A program made the translations under genes and the position numbers. Below are positions 53,067 through 63,999 of a stretch of 64,000 bases of DNA, in pieces. The DNA is from Coriobacteriia bacterium (GTDB lineage: Bacteria; Actinomycetota; Coriobacteriia; Anaerosomatales; SLCP01), in assembly GCA_007121015.1 (NCBI GenBank), contig SKMN01000022.1:19027-83026 (forward strand), given 5' to 3'. A model generated the notes under the pieces. The model was given only the letters and a program-made list of their open reading frames with translations. It searched no databases and was not told the DNA's origin. The stretch's first letter is position 1. Each line of letters begins with the position of its first letter.

Positions 53067-54731
53067 CTAGTTCCTGACCCAGAGACCTGGCACGAGCAAT
53101 CCGCCTCCCGAACCGGGCAGCGAGTCGGGCAGGTACTCGGGCAGTCGCGGGTTGGTGATGAGGTAGTTGTTGTTGTGCTCGAATTCCATCCTGCCCGAAA
53201 GCACCGTCCCCCTGAGCGAGAGGTTGTTCGAATTAAACGTCGCCTCTGCTCCCGTGTAGAAGGCGCCGGCATAGATGGGCGTCGCTTTCCGCAACTCTTC
53301 GCGGCTCATGTTGTTGTAGCTGTTGTCCCCGCCGCCGTTGAAGTTGATGTTTAGCGGGGTCACGATTCCAAGAGCCCACCGGTTGTACTCACCCTGCGCG
53401 TTCCCATGCCCGTGGCTCGAGTTGGTGCTGTACGGGCGCAAACTTCCGTTGATGTTGACCTCACCGTTGGCCACGATGGTACCGTTGCCCACGTACGTCA
53501 TGTTCTCGGTGAAGGTGACGGGTCCGTCCACGAAGACGGTGCCGGCGATGTAGAGGATCTTGTTGACGTGGTCGTAGGCGAAGTCATCGTGTGTGTTGGT
53601 CGGATATCCCGACGAACCGGCGGGCCCCGCCGTCAGGCTCACAGCCGGGGACACGTCCCCGTCTTCCGTGACGCCCTCTGGGAGCGATATCGCCCCCCAG
53701 GCCCCGAACGACGATCCTCCGATCGTCAGATGGGCCTGCCCCTCGCCGATGGTGGAGATCGTCCCGTCCTCCGCGCCGAAGAACTTGTAGTTGGGATTGT
53801 GGTCGTTGGTCGCAGATGCCTCGGTACGACTCCAGTCCGTCGTGTTCGGCGGGATCATCGTCTTGTAGGTGTGCGCTCCGCCCGAGCTCTCCAGGTTTGC
53901 GGTCGGCGATTCCTCTGACTCGGGATCGTGGCTCCCGAGTTGGTTGTCGATGGACTCGTGTTGCGCCTTCGTAGCCCACTCCTGAAGCTCGCCCGGGGTC
54001 AGCGGCGGCAGGATGATGTCCGGGACGGACCGGGAGATGCTCGCGACGTAGACGCCCCTACCTCCCGCCTTCTCGACGTTGGTCGGGACTGAGGGGCTAC
54101 CGTCTCCGTCACAGAAGACGTCTATCGGCATGTCCGCCGAACCGAGCCACGAGTTATCGTGGACGGAGATGTTGCCGCCTCTCACGAAGAGCGGACCCTC
54201 GAACATGCCCATGTTCGCCTTGATATCGAAGTTGCCCTTCATGTAGAACGGGCCGATGATGTTGGAGGTGCCGTTGAATCCGCTCGAGCCGGTGAGAAGC
54301 GATTGAGGCCCGATGCCCGCGAAGTTCATCTGCCACAGGTTCAGGTAGAAGAACTCCTGACTCACGAGTTCGGTCGTCCCGTCGAGACCTTCGCCAAGCG
54401 AGTCGAGTCTGAACCTGCCGCCTCCGAGGTTCTCGGTGGTGACCTCGTAGGTCCCGTCGAGCGTCGCGTCCCCGAGGGTGATGGGCTCCCCTTCGAAGAT
54501 CGAGAGCGCATGCTCCAGCCCGCTAGCTGCGGCCCGAAATGCGCGGGACTCATCCTCGACGCGCTGGGACTCGTGCAGGGTCTGTCGCGCGAGCGCGAAC
54601 GACCCCACCGCAAGCACGGTCACGATGCTCATGATGCCGATAACCACGAGCATAGCGATCCCACTGTCGTCTCTCGTCAGTGCGCGCATCATGCGGTACA
54701 TCGCTGTAGGCCTCCTCGGCTGGTACTTCAT
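53067..54731 (-). CDS. 554-aa PilX/GspK-like minor pilin (no Glu+5) with a large Asn/Gly-rich domain
   Basis: The track ORF is trimmed to the ATG at 54729-54731, which shares 1 nt with the upstream stop. The N-terminus ...TRDDSG-IAMLVVIGIMSIVTVLAVGSFALARQ matches the PilX-N/GspK style (Gly, then a hydrophobic helix with no Glu at +5). It is third in the V-W-X order. Confidence 0.65.
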   Translation of the reverse strand: MKYQPRRPTAMYRMMRALTRDDSGIAMLVVIGIMSIVTVLAVGSFALARQTLHESQRVEDESRAFRAAASGLEHALSIFEGEPITLGDATLDGTYEVTTENLGGGRFRLDSLGEGLDGTTELVSQEFFYLNLWQMNFAGIGPQSLLTGSSGFNGTSNIIGPFYMKGNFDIKANMGMFEGPLFVRGGNISVHDNSWLGSADMPIDVFCDGDGSPSVPTNVEKAGGRGVYVASISRSVPDIILPPLTPGELQEWATKAQHESIDNQLGSHDPESEESPTANLESSGGAHTYKTMIPPNTTDWSRTEASATNDHNPNYKFFGAEDGTISTIGEGQAHLTIGGSSFGAWGAISLPEGVTEDGDVSPAVSLTAGPAGSSGYPTNTHDDFAYDHVNKILYIAGTVFVDGPVTFTENMTYVGNGTIVANGEVNINGSLRPYSTNSSHGHGNAQGEYNRWALGIVTPLNINFNGGGDNSYNNMSREELRKATPIYAGAFYTGAEATFNSNNLSLRGTVLSGRMEFEHNNNYLITNPRLPEYLPDSLPGSGGGLLVPGLWVRN

Positions 54732-55291
54732 CAGTTCCTGAAGAAGATGGTGCGACTGTCGGAGAACTGGCGTCCCTGATGCATGGTCACGATGGTCACG
54801 ATCACGTAGCGGGCGTCGTAGTGGACGTTCGACATGTCTGTGATCTCGACTCCATCGGCATCGAAGTAGCGGAACAACGGTTCGTCCGCCTGCCTGTTGA
54901 AGTTGGCGTCCGACCACACCCCGACATGGTACTCGGGATCCGTGACGTTCTGGCTCGAAGTGACGGCGAGCTCGTTGTCGGTCGTCGCCTCGATGACGTA
55001 CCGTTCGCCTGCGCCGCCAGCACGATTGGTGAGAAACGCGATCCGGTACGGGGTGGCTTCGTTGGAGCCCGTCTGTATCTGGTACTGCTGGCTCAAGACG
55101 CGCTCGGCGAACTCTAGCGGCGCCGCAACCTCTCGAGCCATCCAGGCCTCCCTGCTGGCGGCGTTCGTGCCGATCTGCGTGATTTGCAGCAGCCCATACG
55201 CAACGGAGAGCACGAACCCGAGAAGCAGGAGGACGACCATGAGTTCGGTAAGCGTGAAGCCATCGTCCTTGCGCAGTCGGAACACCCTCAC
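54731..55291 (-). CDS. 186-aa minor pilin (PilW/GspJ-like)
   Basis: The track ORF is trimmed to the GTG at 55289-55291, forming a GTGA overlap. The class III signal RKDDG-FTLTELMVVLLLLGF has Gly-1, Phe+1 and Glu+5. Confidence 0.75.
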   Translation of the reverse strand: MRVFRLRKDDGFTLTELMVVLLLLGFVLSVAYGLLQITQIGTNAASREAWMAREVAAPLEFAERVLSQQYQIQTGSNEATPYRIAFLTNRAGGAGERYVIEATTDNELAVTSSQNVTDPEYHVGVWSDANFNRQADEPLFRYFDADGVEITDMSNVHYDARYVIVTIVTMHQGRQFSDSRTIFFRN

Positions 55292-56820
55292 CACGTCCCC
55301 TCGGAGAAGGTGTAGGTTCCCGGGTCGCTCTGATACTCGGTCAGCACGGTGTTGGAACGGATCGTCGTCTGCGTGCCGCCTCCGTAACCGTCCGGGGTGT
55401 ACGTCACGACGCATGCGTACTGCGTGAGCGGGTAGTTGGACTGCCTCGGATTGCCGTTGATCTGCACCGTGTGGGTGAACGTGTTGTCAGGACCGCTGTA
55501 GAGCGGAGGGTCGACCAGGTTCCCGTTATCGACCAGGTGGAAGCTATACGTGGTCGTACCCGTGGTCGGGAAATCGGGCGGGGTGACTGTTAAGTCCGAT
55601 GTCACACGCCAGAAGTTGCCTTCTCCCCCGCCTGTTCCCTTCTCGACCCGGTACGTACCAGAGACGAGCGGCCTCGTCACGAACACCTGCCATGCGCAGA
55701 AGTCCGAGTACAGCGGGCGCGCACTGAACGAGCGTGCCCTCGCCGCGTACCTGCTGAATGTCGGATGTGTCAATGTGTACGAGTTGGTCTCGACCGTAGG
55801 GTTCGGATCGACATCGATCGGCCAGGTCGTTGGACCGACCTGTCGCCGTATCTCCAACTCGTAGCCTGCCGCCGGAGCGGTACCGTCCTGCACGGTCTGC
55901 CACGTGATCACCGTCGTCGAACCCTTCTTGTCGGTGAAGGAGAGTGGCCCAGGGACAGGCGGGATCTCGTTGTCCACGATGAACGTACGATGTATCCGCG
56001 TGCTCGCTCCCCTGTCGTCGGTCACCTCGACGATGATCGTGTGGAGTCCGTCTGCTGCGACCCGCCGTACCGTGCCGTCGGCGTCGGTCTGCGACTGCAG
56101 CGTGTACCAGTAGAACGGGTTGGGCGAAGAGGCGAAGTTGGAGTTGAACGAGGGATCGTTGACGGTCCACTGGGCGAGAGCGCCCCCTTTGTTCTCGAGC
56201 GGCGTGTTCCCATACTCGAGGTAGTACTTGACCGTCGCTATCTCCCTGCCCTCGGCGGCGTGAGCTTCGATCTTGATATCGAGCTTTCCACCCGCCCAGT
56301 CCTCCTCCCACACGACTTCACCGTCCGGCGGCGTTCCGGGCAAGAACGAGACCGTCGGCCGATCGGCGGGGTCTACAGATGCCTGTGTCATGAACTGCGT
56401 GCGGTCTCTGATGATCACGCTCGTGCTTATCTGCTGCGACCAGCCGTCCACACGGATGATCTCGACATCGATGTGCACGTCCTTGGTCGCCGTGGGATTG
56501 GCGCCCGGTGTGACCGTTGGCCGGAAGATGATCGTGTACGGCGGCTCTTCGATCGTGTGCTCCGGCTCGAGCACCCCATCATCGGTGTGGCCGACGAGAT
56601 CCACCTTCTCGAACGGCAACGTGTTCAGCCACTCGGTATACGAGCTGATGGCGTTCGTGAGCACGTTCTGCTGCTTGGCCTGTGCGCTGGTCCTCGTGGT
56701 CTGCAGAACGAGCCCGAGGACCCCTGTCAGGATGATGAACAGGATGACCGACGCGACCACGATCTCGACGAGCGTCATGCCGTCTTCATCGTTCCAGATA
56801 CGGCTCTGTATGCCCCTCAT
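55288..56820 (-). CDS. 510-aa modular minor pilin (PilV/GspI-like N-terminus plus Ig/FN3-like modules)
   Basis: The track ORF is trimmed to the ATG at 56818-56820. The signal NDEDG-MTLVEIVVASVILFIIL has Gly-1, Met+1 and Glu+5. Downstream, PPVPGPLSFTDKKGSTTVITWQTVQDGTAPAAGYELEIRR...YTL...RYAARARSFS looks like an FN3 domain. Confidence 0.75.
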   Translation of the reverse strand: MRGIQSRIWNDEDGMTLVEIVVASVILFIILTGVLGLVLQTTRTSAQAKQQNVLTNAISSYTEWLNTLPFEKVDLVGHTDDGVLEPEHTIEEPPYTIIFRPTVTPGANPTATKDVHIDVEIIRVDGWSQQISTSVIIRDRTQFMTQASVDPADRPTVSFLPGTPPDGEVVWEEDWAGGKLDIKIEAHAAEGREIATVKYYLEYGNTPLENKGGALAQWTVNDPSFNSNFASSPNPFYWYTLQSQTDADGTVRRVAADGLHTIIVEVTDDRGASTRIHRTFIVDNEIPPVPGPLSFTDKKGSTTVITWQTVQDGTAPAAGYELEIRRQVGPTTWPIDVDPNPTVETNSYTLTHPTFSRYAARARSFSARPLYSDFCAWQVFVTRPLVSGTYRVEKGTGGGEGNFWRVTSDLTVTPPDFPTTGTTTYSFHLVDNGNLVDPPLYSGPDNTFTHTVQINGNPRQSNYPLTQYACVVTYTPDGYGGGTQTTIRSNTVLTEYQSDPGTYTFSEGTW

Positions 56821-56976
56821 CGGCTCCACTCCTACTGCGCGCACTACCGGGCGCACGATCGCACGCCTCTATCGGGATATCGGCACCATTCTAGCTGCGC
56901 TTAAGAATCGCCGCTCGAAGTAGGCGGCCCGCCACGGAACCGCAGCCATCACGCCAGCCCGGAGAGCGGGTGACGC

Positions 56977-57894: not shown

Positions 57895-57924
57895 GAGAGG
57901 GACCGGCCAAAGCCGGTCCCTCTC
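57895..57924 (-). terminator. hairpin between pilA and pilD
   Basis: A perfect 13-bp stem, GAGAGGGACCGGC / GCCGGTCCCTCTC, with a 4-nt loop, lies 31 nt after the pilA TAA. A short U-containing stretch follows (UCGUCUUUCC). Confidence 0.55.
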
Positions 57925-57955: not shown

Positions 57956-58324
57956 TTAGCTGCCGAAGTGGCCGTGGGTGGTAGCGGCCTCATCGGGGCA
58001 AGCGGTCACGCCGTCGGTCAGCACGTACGGACCCACGCCGTTGGTCGGGCACTCTGGAGACGACTGGATGAAGCCGTCCGTGACGAGCGTTTCGACACCG
58101 GCAGTGTCAAGGTCCGCAAGGTTCCTCCCGACCTCACTCGCTACCCACGTCTGCGCAGCGCCCTCGATCGTGCGCTGGTTCGCGTGGCACGTGCGCTCCT
58201 GGGCGCTCCCACGAGCTGCGTTGAAGACGGGAATGGCAATGGCGACAAGGATACCGATAATAAGAACGACGACCATGAGCTCGACGAGGGTGAAGCCCTC
58301 ATCCTTTCTGTGGAACATCCTCAT
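57956..58324 (-). CDS. pilA: major type IV pilin
   Basis: The track ORF is trimmed to the ATG at 58322-58324, with a strong SD (GAAGGAGGTG). The signal MRMFHRKDEG-FTLVELMVVVLIIGILVAIAIPVF is canonical. The preprotein is 122 aa. Confidence 0.88.
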   Translation of the reverse strand: MRMFHRKDEGFTLVELMVVVLIIGILVAIAIPVFNAARGSAQERTCHANQRTIEGAAQTWVASEVGRNLADLDTAGVETLVTDGFIQSSPECPTNGVGPYVLTDGVTACPDEAATTHGHFGS

Positions 58325-58463
58325 GCTCCGCACCTCCTTCTCCCCTCTGCGGGGATTCCGGACCCGGCGAACCAGGCCAATACTGCTCTTATGCAGTCGT
58401 ATCGGCATCATTCGATCTCGGCTTTAACACGATTCGCCGCGCGCATCGATCGACGCTAGCGGA

Positions 58464-59675
58464 TCAGTCGATCAGCGTGATGATGTTGAACATCGGCAGG
58501 TACAAAGCCACGACCATGCCGCCGACGATCGCGCCGAGCGACGCCATCATGAGAGGCTCGATGAGGGACGTCAGGCCGTCCACCGCCGCTGAGACCTCTT
58601 CGTCATAGAAATCAGCGATCTTGTTGAGCATCGCGTCGAGCGCACCGGTCTCCTCTCCCACCGCGATCATCTGTACGAGCATCGAGGGGAACACGCCCGA
58701 CTCGGCAAGCGGCTTGGCGATCGTCTCCCCCTCCTTGATCGCGGAACGGGTGTTCTTCACCGCTTCCGCCACGACCGCGTTCCCGGCGGTATCGGCAACG
58801 ATATCGAGTGCGGACAGGATGGGTACACCCGCGGACACGAGCGTGCCGAACGTGCGCGTGAACTTGGCGAGAGACATCTTCCTGATCATCCCGCCAAAGA
58901 TCGGCATGCGCAGTTTGGCGGAGTCCCAGATGTAGCGACCGGACGTCGTACTGGTCCAGAAGCGGAATCCGAACACCAGGGCCACCATGCCCAGGAGCAA
59001 GAACACACCTCCGATGCCTGCGACGAAGTCAGATAGATCGACCAGGATCTGGGTCATGAGCGGCAACTCCCCGCCCATCGATGTGAACATCCCTTCGAAC
59101 ACCGGGACGACGAACACCATCATGGCAGCGAGCACGATGAGTACGAGGCTGCCCATCGCTACCGGATACGTCATCGCGGACTTGATCTTGCCCTTGAGCG
59201 CCAGCTCCCGCTCGAAGTGATCGGCGACTCGCACGAGCACCTCGTCGAGCACACCACCGGTCTCACCGGCCCGCACCATGTTGACGAATATCGGCGGGAA
59301 CACCTTGGGGTGTTTCACGAGGGCGTCCGAGAGTGACTGGCCCGCCTCGACGTCCTTGGATACCAGCTGGATGACGTCTCTCAGTCCATCGCTCTCGGTC
59401 TGACCGGCAAGGATGCTCAGGCACTTGGTGAGCGAGAGACCGGCGTTGATCATCGTCGCGAACTGACGAGCGAAGACGGCGACGTCCTTGACCTTGACGC
59501 CCGTGCCGAACTTGATCTGCCCCATCGCAGCGAGCTGGGACTGCTGGTCGAGCTCGAGGATGATATAGCCCATCTGGCGGAGTTTCGCACTCACCGCCTC
59601 GCGGCTGTCGCCCTCGAGTGATCCCTTTACGACCTTGCCGGCCTTGTCGCGCACCGAGTAGTTGAATACCGCCAT
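58464..59675 (-). CDS. pilC: type IV pilus platform protein PilC (GspF family)
   Basis: Two GspF repeats (LSILAGQTE...L....V..G..LS.AL..HP.VFP and a second copy) and three TM segments. Confidence 0.93.
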   Translation of the reverse strand: MAVFNYSVRDKAGKVVKGSLEGDSREAVSAKLRQMGYIILELDQQSQLAAMGQIKFGTGVKVKDVAVFARQFATMINAGLSLTKCLSILAGQTESDGLRDVIQLVSKDVEAGQSLSDALVKHPKVFPPIFVNMVRAGETGGVLDEVLVRVADHFERELALKGKIKSAMTYPVAMGSLVLIVLAAMMVFVVPVFEGMFTSMGGELPLMTQILVDLSDFVAGIGGVFLLLGMVALVFGFRFWTSTTSGRYIWDSAKLRMPIFGGMIRKMSLAKFTRTFGTLVSAGVPILSALDIVADTAGNAVVAEAVKNTRSAIKEGETIAKPLAESGVFPSMLVQMIAVGEETGALDAMLNKIADFYDEEVSAAVDGLTSLIEPLMMASLGAIVGGMVVALYLPMFNIITLID

Positions 59676-59725: not shown

Positions 59726-61396
59726 TCAGACGATGACGCGCAGGACCTCCTCGACGGAGGTCTGACCCATCCGCACCTTTTCGAGACCGTCCTGCTTCAA
59801 CGTCCGCATGCCATCGGCGATGGCTACCTTCTTTATCTCTTCGGCAGTTGCCTCGGCGACCGTTAATCTGCTGATCTCTTCGCTGAGGAGAAGAACCTCG
59901 TGTACGCCCATGCGGCCGCGGTATCCGGTGTTGCCGCACTTCTTGCATCCGACCGCCTTGTAGATGCTGTCAGGCAGGTTGTCCTCGGGGAATCCCGCGT
60001 CGATGAGTGCCTTGGAGCTCGGCGAGTACTCTTCCTTGCACTCCGTGCATAGTCGCCTACAGAGTCGCTGCGCGAGAACGCAGTCGAGGGCCGATGACAC
60101 GAGGAAGGGTTCGACCCCCATCTCGACGAGACGCGTGACGGCGCCCGCGGCGTCGTTGGTGTGGAGCGTCGACAGCACGAGGTGTCCGGTGAGCGCCGAC
60201 TCGATGGCGATCTGCGCCGTCTCCTGGTCGCGGATCTCGCCCACGAGGATGATGTCGGGCGAACACCGCAAAAACGAACGCAGCGCTCGGGCGAACGTGA
60301 GGCCTGACTTCGTGTTGATCTGACACTGGTTCACGCCGGGAAGGCGGTACTCGACCGGGTCCTCGGCGGTGAGAATGTGGCGGTCGGGCGAGTTGAGCAC
60401 GTTGACTGCGGCGTACAGTGAGGTCGACTTGCCCGAGCCGGTGGGACCGGTCACGAGGATGGCGCCGTACGGCTTGCGGAACGACGACTCGAACCGCCCG
60501 AGGGCGTCGGGCAGGAAGCCGAGGTCCTTCAGTTCGAGCAGGATCGCGTCTTTGCGCAGGATACGGAGCACGACCCGCTCGCCGTACACGGTCGGGAGCG
60601 AGGACACCCGGAAGTCGATCTGGTGTCCGCCGATGGTCACCGCGCAGTGGCCGTCCTGGGGACGGCGCGATTCGGCGATGTCCATCTCGGCCATGATCTT
60701 GAAGCGGCTGATGATCGATGACTGCACGGCCTTGGGGCTGCGCATGACCTCGTGGAGCACGCCGTCGACGCGGAACCGCACGCGCATGTCAGTCTCTTGC
60801 GGTTCGATGTGGATGTCGCTCGCCCTGTCTGCGACCGCTTTGTTGATGATGTAGTTGACGAGCTTGACGATCGGCGCGTCGGAGGTCACGTCGGTGAGCT
60901 GCTCGAGGTCCGACTCGTCGAGCTCTTCGACGGGAGTCCCAGCGTCGAGCTCGGTCTGCTCGGCGACCTTGTAGTACTCCTCGATCGCCGAGATGATGTC
61001 GTCTTTCGTCGAGATGGCAGGCTTGATCTCGTGCCCGGTGATGATACGCAAGTCGTCGAGCGCGAGCACGTTCTGCGGATCCGCCATCGCGACTACGAGT
61101 TCGCCGTCGACGATCTGTACCGGCATGAGCGTGTAGCGCTCGGCTAGGTCACGGGGTACCGCTGCCACCGCGTCGGGCGTGGGCTTGCGCGCGGAGAAGT
61201 CGATGTACTCGATGCCGATCTGAGCGGCCATGACGGACAGGATGGCGCCCTGCGTCGCATAGCCGAGGTCGACAAGGACGCGACCGAGGGGCGATCCGGT
61301 CGCCTTGTGGACCTCAAGCGCATCGTTGAGCTGTCGCTCTGTGATGATCCCGGCCCGCATGAGGAGCTGACCGAGTCGGTGTCCGGCTTCCGCCAC
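59726..61396 (-). CDS. pilB: type IV pilus assembly ATPase PilB (GspE family)
   Basis: N-terminal MshEN/T2SSE_N-like domain, Walker A GPTGSGKST, Asp and His boxes, and a tetracysteine motif (CTEC...CKKCGNTGYRGR). I chose the GTG at 61394-61396 because GGGAGAGG lies 9 nt upstream. The track start is 61450. Confidence 0.93.
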   Translation of the reverse strand: MAEAGHRLGQLLMRAGIITERQLNDALEVHKATGSPLGRVLVDLGYATQGAILSVMAAQIGIEYIDFSARKPTPDAVAAVPRDLAERYTLMPVQIVDGELVVAMADPQNVLALDDLRIITGHEIKPAISTKDDIISAIEEYYKVAEQTELDAGTPVEELDESDLEQLTDVTSDAPIVKLVNYIINKAVADRASDIHIEPQETDMRVRFRVDGVLHEVMRSPKAVQSSIISRFKIMAEMDIAESRRPQDGHCAVTIGGHQIDFRVSSLPTVYGERVVLRILRKDAILLELKDLGFLPDALGRFESSFRKPYGAILVTGPTGSGKSTSLYAAVNVLNSPDRHILTAEDPVEYRLPGVNQCQINTKSGLTFARALRSFLRCSPDIILVGEIRDQETAQIAIESALTGHLVLSTLHTNDAAGAVTRLVEMGVEPFLVSSALDCVLAQRLCRRLCTECKEEYSPSSKALIDAGFPEDNLPDSIYKAVGCKKCGNTGYRGRMGVHEVLLLSEEISRLTVAEATAEEIKKVAIADGMRTLKQDGLEKVRMGQTSVEEVLRVIV

Positions 61397-61508
61397 GTAC
61401 GCTGACCTCTCCCGGATCTGCGGCTGTGCCGCGTGACGACCCGATGGCACGGCTCACACTCGGCCTAATGGTACGACATCGACAGCAACGCTGGCACGGT
61501 GTTGTTGC

Positions 61509-62564
61509 TCAGGAACCTTCGCGGGCCCGCGACAGCTCCTCCAAGAGCGACGATGCGTAGCGCTGGAACAACTCGAAGGTCTTAGTGCCCTCTTTCACTC
61601 CCACACGAGTGTCACCGAACCACATCTCGACAGGCGACACCGGGTCGAACTCGGGTGCGTCACGGCCGGGCGCGGGCTCTGCGGGCGGCTCCGCCTCGCC
61701 GACGGCGACCTGTGGCATGACCGTATCGAGCCACGAGTCATCGATCGGCGTTGCGACCGGAGGAGCAGGGGGCGCCTCTCCGGCCCTGTGGGCGACTGGG
61801 GGCTCGGGTACCACCTCGGCTACCGGCTCGACCTCCGGCAGCAGGTCGACCTCCGGCAGCGGTTCGGGTTCGAGCAGCGGTTCGGAATCGGGTTCGGGCA
61901 CGACCTCGGAGACGGGCTCGGGCGCGATCCCTGAGGCAGGCCCGAGTTCCGGAAGCGGTTCGGGCTCCGGTGCAGGCTCGGGCTCGGTGAGCGGACCGGG
62001 GGCGGGTACGGTCGGCTTAGGGACCTCTCTCGCAACAGGCAGCGAGCCGGGCGTCTGCAACAGCTCCGGCTTCGGAGATGACACCGGTTCGGCCGGAGCT
62101 ACGGTGGGAGTCTCTAGCGGGGCGACCGGCGCCGGTGGCGGCTTTGGGGGTTCCAGGGTCTCGGGCACGCGCTCGACCTCGGCGACGACCGCCGGTTCCG
62201 GCGACGCCTCGGGCTCCGCGTCGGCGGCATGCGCTTGCTGCTCGTCAGGGACGACCGGGGCAGACGGACCGGTGTACCCTGCTGGCGATCCCTCGGCAGA
62301 AGGCTCCGGTCGCCAGTCCCCGATGCGCAGCGGAGCGGAAAGGACGTCCTGCGCGGCGGGCGTCCCCGACTCCGGCCAGTCGATCTCGACAGGTTCGCCA
62401 GCCTCACGATCCGTGTCGCGTTCCTCGTCCCGACCCAGGCCCACGAGTACCGCGCGTGCCGCCTCATGCTCTTTGCGCGAGCGCGATGCAGCAACGAGCA
62501 GGTACACCAGCGACCCCAGGAGCAGGATGAAAGTCCCGGCCACGATGTACAGCCGAGGATCCAT
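61509..62564 (-). CDS. N-terminally anchored Pro/Glu-rich protein with a short conserved-looking C-terminal module
   Basis: ATG 3 nt after the GTPase stop. The TM segment ([22 protein letters not shown]) is followed by SRSRKEH, so positive-inside topology places the rest in the cytoplasm. About 250 aa are rich in P, E, V and A. The C-terminus [34 protein letters not shown] is non-repetitive. Confidence 0.65.
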
Positions 62565-62567
62565 CGG

Positions 62568-63095
62568 CTACCCCATGCTCTCGAGGATGCGGTAGAGCAG
62601 GCCGAGGAGCACGGCCTTCACCGAATCCTTGTCGCGCGCGTCGACCGGCAGCAGCGGGACACTCTCGTCGATCGCGAGGGCCGCGCGTACCTGTCGCAGC
62701 GCATCGAGGTCATCGGCTGCAACCTTGTTGGCCGCCACGACGAACGGCACGTCCGACATGTCGCGGAAGAAGGCGATCATGTTCTTGGCATCGGCGATGG
62801 AGTCCTCGGCCGTTGCGTCCACGAGGAGCACGAAGCCAAGCATGCCTTCCGAGAGCGTCTCCCACATGAAGGAGAAACGCTCCTGACCCGGCGTGCCGAA
62901 GAGGTAGAGGACCACGTCGTCGGAGACGGTGATCCGGCCGAAGTCCATGGCGACCGTCGTCTCACCGGCTGCCTCGTTGGAGACATCGCTCACGTGGCGC
63001 TCGGTCGAGAGCACGGTAATCTCGCTCACCGCCTTGATGAACGTTGTCTTGCCCGCGTTGAACGGTCCGGTCACGACGACTTTAACCGACTGCAT
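62568..63095 (-). CDS. small Ras-like GTPase of the MglA/CvnD (COG2229-like) type
   Basis: P-loop GPFNAGKT. The switch I region is ETTVAMDFG. Switch II reads LFGTPGQERF, the PGQ form lacking the Asp of DxxGQ that is typical of MglA/CvnD. G4 is the degenerate NKVA, and G5-like is DARDKDSV. The protein is 175 aa. Confidence 0.85.
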   Translation of the reverse strand: MQSVKVVVTGPFNAGKTTFIKAVSEITVLSTERHVSDVSNEAAGETTVAMDFGRITVSDDVVLYLFGTPGQERFSFMWETLSEGMLGFVLLVDATAEDSIADAKNMIAFFRDMSDVPFVVAANKVAADDLDALRQVRAALAIDESVPLLPVDARDKDSVKAVLLGLLYRILESMG

Positions 63096-63114
63096 CAGGC
63101 CGCCTTCTCATCCG

Positions 63115-63999
63115 TCATAGCTTCTTCACGCCCTCTATGATCTTGAGCACAAGATCCTTGTCCACCGTCTGGTCCCGCTTCAAGCCGACCTCCTGGCCGG
63201 GCTCCGGGATCTTGTTGACGCTCGCCTGCGGACGAGAGCGCTCGACACCCGTCAGCGCGTTGAGTTCGTCTCCGAGTCCGCTTCGGATGCTGATGTCGAA
63301 GTCGCCGTCGTCGAACTCGGCCAAGAACGAGTCGGTGGAGATAACGCCCTCCGTGGGTACCGGCTCGTCCCGGAACGTGTCGCTCTGGATGCGGCCGACC
63401 GGCTCCTCTACGGAAAGCTCGTTTAGGGATTCGAGGATCTCGCCGAAGTCCGTGGAGGCGGCGGGAGCTTCGGTCTCCGGTTCCTCCGCGACGACATCGG
63501 CCTCCGAGGCCGGATCCGCGACACCGGCAGGTTCCGCCACCTGTCGTGTCGGCTCCTCCGAGAGGTCCAGAGCTCCAAGCGAGACCTGCGGGCTTGCCGG
63601 AGGCTCCGTCTCCGGCTCGGGCTCGACTTCGGGCTCGGACTCTGTCTCCGGCTCGGGCTCGACTTCGAGTTCGGGTTCGGGTGCGATATCCGGCTCAGGC
63701 TCAGGCTCCACTGCCGCAGTTTCCGGCTCCAATAGGTCCGAGCCGGGGAACTCGCCGAGTCCGAGCGCCATGAGATCTCGCTCGAGGTCCGGCTCGAACT
63801 CCTCTTCGGGTTCCGGCTCCGGTTCCGGTTCCGGTTCGGGTTCGGGTTCCGGTTCCGGCTCCGGTTCCAGTTCCGGTTCCGGTTCCGGCTCCGGCTCCGG
63901 TTCCGGTTCCGGCTCCGGTTCCGGTTCCGGTTCCGGTTCCGGTTCGGGTTCCGGTTCGGGTTCGGGCTCGGCAGTCGGGGCCATCGGCTTTTCGAGCAC
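63115..63999 (-). CDS. acidic (Pro-Glu)n repeat protein; 5' end may lie beyond the window
   Basis: The ORF is open to the window edge. The first in-window start candidates are the GTG at 63999 and the ATG at 63984. It contains about 28 consecutive PE dipeptides, further EP-rich segments, and a non-repetitive C-terminus (...[23 protein letters not shown]...[15 protein letters not shown]). Its stop is 19 nt before the GTPase ATG. Confidence 0.6.
63608..63667 (-). repeat. 24-bp perfect direct repeat, two copies at 36-bp spacing
   Basis: GTCTCCGGCTCGGGCTCGACTTCG occurs at 63608-63631 and again at 63644-63667. Both copies encode EVEPEPET within the same ORF. Confidence 0.8.
63805..63972 (-). repeat. 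28 tandem hexanucleotide units (coding-strand consensus CCGGAA = Pro-Glu)
   Basis: Counted directly. On plus there are 28 contiguous units of TTCCGG, CTCCGG or TTCGGG, one TTCCAG variant (Leu-Glu) and a terminal CTCGGC. All are in frame with ORF 63115..63999. Confidence 0.9.

Follow-up and report, generated by a model that had tools for sequence, protein, structure and literature searches.

A putative G-protein switch encoded beside pilB in a type IV pilus gene cluster of a Coriobacteriia bacterium

Conservons, whose operons encode a sensor kinase, a Roadblock protein, a DUF742 protein, and a small GTPase, are abundant in Actinomycetota, and the small GTPase MglA controls type IV pilus polarity. 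To our knowledge, the outputs of conservons are poorly understood, and PATAN domains are widespread and have a single demonstrated partner, the cyanobacterial pilus motor. How type IV pili are regulated in Gram-positive Actinomycetota has, as far as we know and with no dedicated search made on this point, been little studied. Here we describe a locus in a 64,000-nucleotide (nt) stretch of contig SKMN01000022.1 from a Coriobacteriia bacterium (the whole stretch is called the window below), where a GTPase gene and its two flanking genes lie directly upstream of pilB. Genes beyond the window end were read from a fetched stretch of the same contig (L001), which is metagenomic and 149 kb long. We favor the view, which we hold to be reasonably probable, that the window has captured the downstream half of a conserved G-protein switch of four genes, set within a type IV pilus cluster and acting on the assembly ATPase PilB through a PATAN-domain protein. 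Such a switch would probably control when or where pili are built.

Several characterized relatives bear on this interpretation. Among MglA-family GTPases, those of group 1 are marked by an Arg adjacent to the Thr of G2 and by TVPGQ in G3, whereas in groups 2-5 a Thr replaces this Arg and G3 reads GTPGQ; an Asp-Gly pair has been reported for the MglB partners of groups 2-5 (Wuichet and Sogaard-Andersen, PMC4316618). The Roadblock protein CvnB/MfpD is a GAP (GTPase-activating protein), and CvnC/MfpC acts as a likely guanine nucleotide exchange factor (PMC13343842). Finally, PatA-type regulators from Synechocystis bind both PilB1 (N-terminal part) and PilC (N-terminal domain) through their PATAN domain, which is sufficient to switch phototaxis (bioRxiv 10.1101/2021.06.11.447907).

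The GTPase of the locus matches the Pfam families ATP_bind_1 (5.5e-18) and Ras (5.6e-9) and scores 43 bits against NCBIfam TIGR00231 (cutoff, 42.5). Its motifs are GPFNAGKT (G1), ETTV (G2), GTPGQ within FGTPGQ (G3), NKVA(ADD) (G4), and DAR (G5), and the GTPGQ of G3 is invariant across all 86 loci examined. As in other MglA-family proteins, G1 has the form GxxxxGK[ST], G3 lacks an Asp, and a Roadblock homolog is encoded within four genes. However, the protein differs from MglA sensu stricto (group 1) in having Thr instead of Arg at G2 and GTPGQ instead of TVPGQ. The combination of TT in G2 and GTPGQ in G3 therefore places it in the group 2-5 branch. A sequence search of the PDB returned Arl8 as the best match (2.5e-7) and MglA only weakly (1.4e-4), with no close solved structure. 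The GTPase is 42-46% identical (E ~1e-35) to “ATP/GTP-binding proteins” in plasmid records, and in all six records opened these relatives lie within canonical sensor kinase-roadblock-DUF742-GTPase operons. Stretches common to the GTPase and conservon CvnD proteins are ETTVAMDFGRIT, LYLFGTPGQ.RF.FMW, and a C-terminal D.RD+DS.KAVLL. Judged from its sequence, the GTPase is a member of the MglA/CvnD branch, as an initial annotation of the window had proposed, and is of the CvnD type by identity and motifs. Within the group 2-5 branch, it may belong to group 5 or be a sister of group 2.

The GTPase gene is the second of three co-directional minus-strand open reading frames (ORFs) that are followed directly by pilB (Table 1). 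The gaps measure 19 nt between the first ORF and the GTPase gene and 3 nt between the GTPase gene and the third ORF. The gap between the third ORF and pilB is 58 nt if pilB begins at the GTG at position 61450 and 112 nt if it begins at the gene-caller start at 61396. No terminator-like site was found between the trio and pilB, and the RNA of this junction is less structured than shuffled sequences (z = +2.1), which together rule out a terminator or structured RNA at this position. On all of these points the initial annotation was correct. It had also taken the first ORF for an acidic (PE)n protein, the trio for the front of the pilus genes, and the GTPase for a protein with no recognizable partners, and each of these claims fails beyond the window end. 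The first ORF is truncated there and forms part of a 656-amino-acid (aa) PATAN protein. Along the contig, the genes run in the order aroE, pilB1, Roadblock/LC7, PATAN protein, GTPase, third ORF (the tether protein), pilB2 (the window pilB), pilC, and pilin, and all of them are on the minus strand. The apparent lack of partners was thus an artifact of the window edge, which cut the locus.

The Roadblock/LC7 gene lies just past the window end, two genes upstream of the GTPase gene (L001 7295-7963, 222 aa). Its product matches Pfam Robl_LC7 at 2.5e-18, and the best named relatives in the PDB are CvnB5 (3leq, 6e-8) and MglB (8e-3); the top PDB match is entry 7f8m, for which we found no relevant paper. 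The protein retains the sequence SMDGF, and thus the Asp-Gly pair of MglB partners of groups 2-5. It also has a Pro/Ala-rich N-terminal extension of ~100 aa, so that all three non-GTPase components of the module have long low-complexity spacers. Directly upstream of the Roadblock gene, and ~2.9-4.5 kb past the window end, is pilB1 (L001 5468-7147). This gene encodes a second full-length PilB paralog (MshEN + T2SSE, 559 aa) that is 54% identical to the window PilB, and it overlaps aroE by 4 nt. The pilB1 gene is present in Coriobacteriia- and Geothermocultor-type loci and not in other Actinomycetes. No CvnA-type histidine kinase gene (HATPase or HisKA) occurs within 10 kb on either side of the locus.

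These neighbors make it extremely improbable that the locus encodes a partner-less GTPase between two Pro/Glu-repeat spacer proteins, as an undescribed system apart from both MglAB and the conservons. Within the 64-kb window such a reading is understandable, given that the three ORFs have no Roadblock, DUF742, or PATAN match there and that the third ORF has no family assignment. It is refuted by the Roadblock gene and by the PATAN N terminus of the first ORF, both of which are found on the contig past the window. In addition, the repeats are not conserved, and the GTPase has the identity to CvnD given above.

Although the initial annotation treated the Pro/Glu repeats as a defining feature, they fall in poorly conserved linkers. 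The (PE)n repeat of the PATAN protein has a period of 6, 26.5 copies, and 89% matches (Tandem Repeats Finder [TRF]), and it is absent from the alignment of Anaerosoma orthologs. In this alignment, the N-terminal 250 aa are highly conserved and the acidic linker is poorly conserved; past the linker there are short conserved motifs and then a conserved extreme C terminus. The (PE)n run, which is peculiar to this organism, thus reflects a hexanucleotide that has expanded within a disordered linker in a lineage-specific manner, and a functional repeat domain is ruled out. PARP and TonB matches were likewise dismissed as compositional only. The in-frame microsatellite is near-perfect, and its length could differ between strains.

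To assess conservation, we scanned one genome per species and obtained 80 loci with GTPase identities of 87-53%, which were annotated by tblastn. Roadblock and PATAN genes are located upstream of the GTPase gene in all 62 Actinomycetota loci, and pilB lies within 3 kb downstream in 43 of 48. These two features were found, respectively, in 23/23 and 21/21 loci of the Coriobacteriia type, 2/2 and 1/1 of the Geothermocultor type, 4/4 and 4/4 of the Solincola type, and 33/33 and 17/22 from other Actinomycetes. The survey that the initial annotation had called for shows that linkage of the GTPase gene to pilB is strongly conserved in Actinomycetota. At Actinomycetes loci with resolved ORF starts, the gap between the PATAN and GTPase genes is usually -4 to +5 nt, and this tight spacing suggests co-translation. 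Nearly all Actinomycetota loci have ruvX-yceG-aroE directly upstream, which indicates that the region is ancient and largely vertically inherited. The identities of the genes, their order, their conservation, and the absence of a terminator before pilB are established by these analyses. Solincola-type metagenome-assembled genomes (MAGs; L045, L049, L053, and L066) differ in carrying three tandem Roadblock paralogs before a PATAN protein of 1081-1273 aa. These loci have aroE between the GTPase gene and pilB and lack the tether protein.

The PATAN protein provides the proposed connection to the pilus motor. Its residues 4-163, encoded outside the window, match PATAN/DUF4388 (PF14332) with an E value of 3.4e-32, and the 656-aa protein is encoded on all three contigs that carry this exact GTPase. 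Pfam gave no Response_reg (REC) match in this protein, and no second PATAN gene was found in the window. We used AlphaFold2 with 97 sequences to model the first 270 residues of a homolog that is 85% identical (predicted local distance difference test [pLDDT], 91; predicted template modeling score, 0.81). Four elements can be seen in the model: the PATAN core, an insertion of four helices (residues 59-122), a winged helix (residues 193-237), and a long helix (residues 240-269). Foldseek returned only winged-helix-sized matches to this model, and a PDB sequence search yielded no solved PATAN structure.

The helical insertion resembles part of MshEN, a receptor for cyclic di-GMP (c-di-GMP) that is made up of two tandem 24-residue motifs, RLGxx(L/V/I)(L/V/I)xxG(L/V/I)(L/V/I)xxxxLxxxLxxQ, with a joint of ~5 residues (PMC5013675). 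The insertion scores 42.3 bits against NF053729 (cutoff, 38), and it aligns with the N terminus of the window PilB (35% identity, E = 1.9e-4). Residues 90-113 (L001 8278-8349, outside the window) are a perfect match to the strict 24-residue motif, RLGRILVDEGYITEQILEAFVQEQ. The PATAN protein carries the strict motif at 30 loci, all of the Coriobacteriia type bar one Solincola-type locus, and the half-site is lost in other Actinomycetes and in Anaerolineae. A different arrangement was observed in the Anaerosomatales MAG GCA_030017365.1 (L087 8001-16747), which encodes a 248-aa stand-alone PATAN paralog with two good MshEN-type half-sites and no C-terminal helix. This paralog heads an operon whose order is PATAN, CheR, CheY, PilB-like ATPase (a third one, of 612 aa), CheW, CheW, MCP, and CheA. 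In Anaerosomatales, genes for PATAN proteins and for PilB-type ATPases thus occur together more than once.

At its other end, the PATAN protein shares features with the DUF742 (CvnC) proteins of conservons. The C-terminal ~20 residues are conserved in every lineage examined, including the 271-297-aa forms of Anaerolineae, where this helix follows the winged helix after ~30 residues. In the DUF742 proteins of six conservons, a short linker likewise connects a winged helix to a C-terminal helix, which ends in ..G[LI]..L-COOH. Like the PATAN gene, the DUF742 gene is placed between those for the Roadblock protein and the GTPase. When Anaerolineae PATAN tails were compared with the DUF742 set by hhalign, the winged helices aligned in register (E = 4.8e-4). 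We also built a position-specific scoring matrix (PSSM) from 30 distinct PATAN C-terminal 14-mers and applied it to a background of ~6,110 unrelated ORF C termini. All six DUF742 C termini score +0.8 to +7.4 bits, compared with -1.4 for the best background sequence (mean, -35; standard deviation, 9), and the sole higher scorers are further PATAN tails. Homology between the PATAN tail and DUF742 is therefore likely on the basis of sequence comparison, and a protein ending in a winged helix and a CvnC-like helix would make the module resemble a kinase-less conservon core.

The winged helix also raises the possibility that the PATAN protein binds DNA and that the state of the GTPase sets pil gene expression. 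We consider a transcriptional regulator of this kind improbable. A winged helix does follow the PATAN domain (AlphaFold model, weak MarR_2 matches, and the Foldseek matches), and mutants of the Streptomyces conservon Cvn8 have altered gene expression (PMC13343842). However, the same winged helix in CvnC/MfpC is given a likely exchange-factor role rather than one in DNA binding (PMC13343842), and the work on Synechocystis speaks against the idea that PatA-type regulators bind DNA (bioRxiv 10.1101/2021.06.11.447907). A long acidic linker and a membrane-tethered fourth protein also better fit a protein-protein scaffold.

That fourth protein, the product of the third ORF, has no Pfam or NCBIfam match. 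The statement in the initial annotation that the flanking modules could not be assigned to any family therefore holds for the third ORF and not for the first, which is the PATAN protein. Its description of the third ORF as membrane anchored and Pro-rich was confirmed: a single N-terminal hydrophobic helix is followed by RSRK and then by a Pro-rich stretch. By the positive-inside rule, the basic residues after the helix predict that the spacer and the C-terminal module are cytoplasmic. Coriobacteriia orthologs range from 84 to 534 aa, and most of the full-length ones have a hydrophobic helix with basic residues, a very variable Pro-rich spacer, and a module of ~40 aa (a crude scan for charge-free 18-residue windows placed the transmembrane [TM] helix at residue 5). 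In Geothermocultor-type loci, a TM helix occurs with the same C-terminal module, and in other Actinomycetes a 70-160-aa ORF at the same position matches the C-terminal pattern V.LGF.DGS...L.P.DP....F..A..L.

A hidden Markov model (HMM) of the module gives a match directly after the GTPase gene in 57 loci and none in Anaerolineae or in the six conservons. By lineage, the module was found in 23/26 loci of the Coriobacteriia type, 2/2 of the Geothermocultor type, 0/4 of the Solincola type, 24/30 from other Actinomycetes, and 0/9 from Anaerolineae. A word-indexed search recovered 208 family members, all unnamed, and there are 428 cluster representatives of the family among 1.84 billion. The structure prediction proposed in the initial annotation was carried out for this C terminus: AlphaFold2 (81 sequences) yields a beta-hairpin (strands 24-28 and 31-35) and a 23-residue helix (40-62), with pLDDT values of 82-96. 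The third ORF thus defines what seems to be a new, small, unannotated family in which a variable Pro-rich spacer separates an anchor from a module made up of a beta-hairpin and a helix.

These components suggest a mechanism in which every step is, for this locus, either transferred from characterized relatives or proposed outright. The GTPase, which lacks an intrinsic arginine finger (TT in G2, GTPGQ in G3), would cycle between its GDP- and GTP-bound states. The Roadblock protein would serve as its GAP, like MglB for MglA and MfpD/CvnB for MfpB. The winged helix and C-terminal helix of the PATAN protein are a likely exchange factor or regulator, by analogy with CvnC/MfpC, and its PATAN domain may dock on the N-terminal region of PilB, on PilC, or on both, as in the Synechocystis PatA-type regulators. 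Through these contacts, the nucleotide state could be translated into local activation or inhibition of pilus assembly, with the window PilB as the presumed target. The third ORF would hold its hairpin/helix module on the membrane's cytoplasmic side on a Pro-rich spacer and probably recruit or anchor the complex at the pilus base, and the Pro/Glu repeats would act as disordered spacers. The MshEN-type half-site in the helical insertion might conceivably add a c-di-GMP input, which is pure inference on our part. A more specific version of this proposal is an ancient, kinase-less switch of the conservon type that combines a CvnB-like Roadblock protein, a PATAN-CvnC-like fusion, a CvnD-like GTPase, and a new tether, is dedicated to the pilus assembly ATPase, and reads c-di-GMP through the PATAN insertion. 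We regard this version as tentative and clearly less probable than the general proposal of a four-gene switch acting on PilB.

Two groups of observations weigh against that proposal, and the first concerns the distribution of the module. Anaerolineae (L072-L085) carry a minimal PATAN-GTPase pair (56-59% identity) with the same C-terminal helix, with or without a Roadblock gene. PATAN is present in 5/5 of these loci, with Roadblock downstream in some, and pilB is within 3 kb downstream in 0/7. The pairs adjoin alpha/beta-hydrolase, V4R, and hexapeptide-transferase genes, and no pil genes occur within 10 kb of them. In addition, 5 of the 22 loci from other Actinomycetes lack pilB within 3 kb downstream. 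Two Frankiales MAG loci (L070 11666-13135 and L074 10811-13808) keep the four module genes, which are followed by polysaccharide genes (Polysacc_synt and Bac_transf) instead of pilB-pilC. The core module is therefore not intrinsically pilus-specific. Moreover, the region as a whole occupies a conserved ruvX-yceG-aroE position, and its linkage to pilB could in part reflect inherited gene order instead of function.

Such findings are what would be expected of a general polarity or envelope G-protein switch serving poles, exopolysaccharide, or development, with pilB as a neighbor through shared inheritance of the ruvX-yceG-aroE region and the pilus as at most one output. The conservation of the upstream context across classes also agrees with this explanation. 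We nevertheless think it unlikely, although less so than transcriptional control, because pilB follows within 3 kb in most Actinomycetota loci, across anciently diverged classes and with operon-like spacing. Moreover, binding of PATAN to PilB and PilC in Synechocystis is experimental, and another PATAN paralog adjoins a PilB-like ATPase. The initial annotation had itself listed ordinary CvnB or MglB homologs, and a trio in relatives without pil genes, as evidence against a pilus system of a new kind. We found a homolog of the first sort, and in Anaerolineae the PATAN-GTPase pair without nearby pil genes.

The second group of observations concerns the individual components of the proposed pilus switch. 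In the PATAN insertion, the first MshEN half-site is degenerate and fails even a relaxed pattern, and the spacer is 8 residues long; c-di-GMP binding is therefore uncertain. The hhalign probability for the match between PATAN tails and DUF742 is low, at only 32%. Among the profile searches suggested in the initial annotation, Roadblock/LC7 and PATAN matched on the full contig and Pfam DUF742 did not, giving no match at E <= 10 to the full PATAN protein, the winged-helix segment, linker-removed constructs, or the Anaerolineae forms. The likeness to CvnC consequently rests on hhalign, the C-terminal motif test, and gene position. No PDB fold matches the third-ORF module below E = 1, the role of this protein as a membrane tether or adaptor is purely inferred, and it is missing from the Solincola-type loci that are linked to pil genes. 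Functions throughout the module are predicted from sequence and from its relatives.

The downstream pilus genes are listed in Table 1 with the other features. The window PilB has strong Pfam matches to T2SSE (2.2e-140) and MshEN (1.9e-22), scores 647.5 bits against NCBIfam TIGR02538, just below the equivalog cutoff of 675.65, and reaches 59.8 bits with NF053729 (cutoff, 38). Downstream of the module, no terminator-like site is met on the minus strand before the hairpin 3' of the pilin gene. A transcript starting at or before the GTPase module would therefore probably end there, upstream of pilD. Beyond the hairpin are the prepilin peptidase gene and further pilus genes as far as pilM. Between the prepilin peptidase gene and pilM, two large minus-strand ORFs (616 and 522 aa, positions 53067-56856) have pilin-like hydrophobic N termini and no Pfam family on record; their products are probably tip proteins or minor pilins of large size. 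A tblastn search with PilB queries found no PilT-type retraction ATPase in the window. A PilT-like gene separates pilB from pilC at several related loci. In the window cluster, pilB is followed directly by pilC.

Table 1. Positions of the module genes, their subfeatures, and the downstream pilus genes in the window
Feature	Position	Strand	Basis or detail
C-terminal 294 codons of the 656-aa PATAN (DUF4388)-winged-helix-linker-tail protein, cut by the window end	63115..63999	-	Full gene, L001 8011-9981
Tandem repeat of a hexanucleotide (coding strand, CCGGAA) that encodes (Pro-Glu)n in the disordered acidic linker	63805..63963	-	TRF
Conserved C-terminal amphipathic helix of the PATAN protein, CvnC/DUF742-like	63118..63177	-	Motif alignment, PSSM
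175-aa small Ras-like GTPase, MglA family, TT/GTPGQ type, closest to conservon CvnD	62568..63095	-	Pfam, motifs, identity
351-aa third ORF (tether protein): N-terminal TM helix, variable Pro-rich cytoplasmic spacer, C-terminal ~40-aa module	61509..62564	-	Alignment, HMM
Predicted TM helix of the third ORF, residues ~6-26	62487..62549	-	Sequence, window scan
C-terminal beta-hairpin + helix module of the third ORF	61512..61631	-	AlphaFold2
Junction of the third ORF and pilB, 58 or 112 nt, terminator-free	61397..61508	-	Terminator scan, RNA folding
PilB-type pilus assembly ATPase, MshEN N-terminal domain and c-di-GMP-binding motif	59726..61450	-	Pfam, NCBIfam
PilC platform protein	58464..59675	-	T2SSF family in gene table
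Major pilin (N_methyl)	57956..58411	-	Gene table
Strong intrinsic-terminator-like hairpin 3' of the pilin gene	57895..57924	-	13-bp stem, 10 GC pairs, T-rich tail

The module is built mostly of known families. We found no earlier description of it in actinobacterial pilus clusters in our literature search, which did not cover subscription journals. Within this scope, we also found no earlier account of its near-universal placement next to pilB across Actinomycetota, of the CvnC-like tail of the PATAN protein, or of the fourth protein family. The arrangement offers a concrete and testable way in which a bacterial G protein could be connected to a defined machine, with the state of the GTPase passed on by PATAN to PilB. 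It also suggests what the CvnC-type winged helix and C-terminal helix might do outside conservons, and it adds a new small protein family whose partner can be sought. If the more specific version of the proposal is true, a kinase-less switch would show what the conservon core originally did in the cell, which would be to control a membrane machine in space or time.

When set beside the known systems, the module shares elements with each. Like MglA/MglB of Myxococcus xanthus and Thermus thermophilus (group 1), it pairs an Asp-less-G3 small GTPase with a Roadblock/LC7 protein. However, group 1 proteins have an Arg finger and TVPGQ where the module GTPase has TT and GTPGQ, its match to MglA is weak (1.4e-4), and, unlike those of the module, the partner genes of Myxococcus MglA are not beside pilB (PMC4316618). 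With the cyanobacterial PATAN regulators (PixE, PixG, LsiR, and PatA-type proteins), the module protein has in common a DUF4388/PATAN domain with an alpha-helical insertion and a genomic association with PilB. PatA-type proteins end in a REC domain, in place of which the module protein has a winged helix together with a long acidic linker and a helix at its C terminus, and its input would come from the GTPase and not from phosphorylation.

PATAN genes beside MglA/MglB genes were noted earlier (Makarova et al. 2006; Wuichet and Sogaard-Andersen 2015, PMC4316618). The group 5 GTPases in particular have TT/GTPGQ, occur in Actinobacteria and Chloroflexi, and have PATAN and MglB neighbors, as in the module. 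These papers describe only an occasional PATAN association for this group, with no pilus-gene link, CvnC-like tail, or fourth protein. The G5 of the module GTPase is DAR, as in groups 2 and 3.

The resemblance to the conservon/AGPS (CvnA-CvnB-CvnC-CvnD; mycobacterial Mfp) extends over three consecutive genes, which in both cases encode first a Roadblock protein, then a middle protein, and then the GTPase. With CvnD, to which it is 42-46% identical, the module GTPase has ETTVAMDFGRIT, GTPGQ, and a DAR-like G5 in common. The Roadblock protein, encoded directly upstream of the middle protein-GTPase pair, matches CvnB5 (3leq) at 6e-8. The middle protein ends in a winged helix and a C-terminal helix that resembles that of DUF742. 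Pfam DUF742 does not match this protein, which also carries a PATAN domain at its N terminus and a ~400-aa disordered linker. A CvnA sensor kinase heads the conservon operon, whereas the genes upstream in the module are aroE and pilB1. The module also has an extra tether protein after the GTPase, which is absent from the six conservons examined, and, by contrast with the conservons, it is embedded in a pilus cluster.

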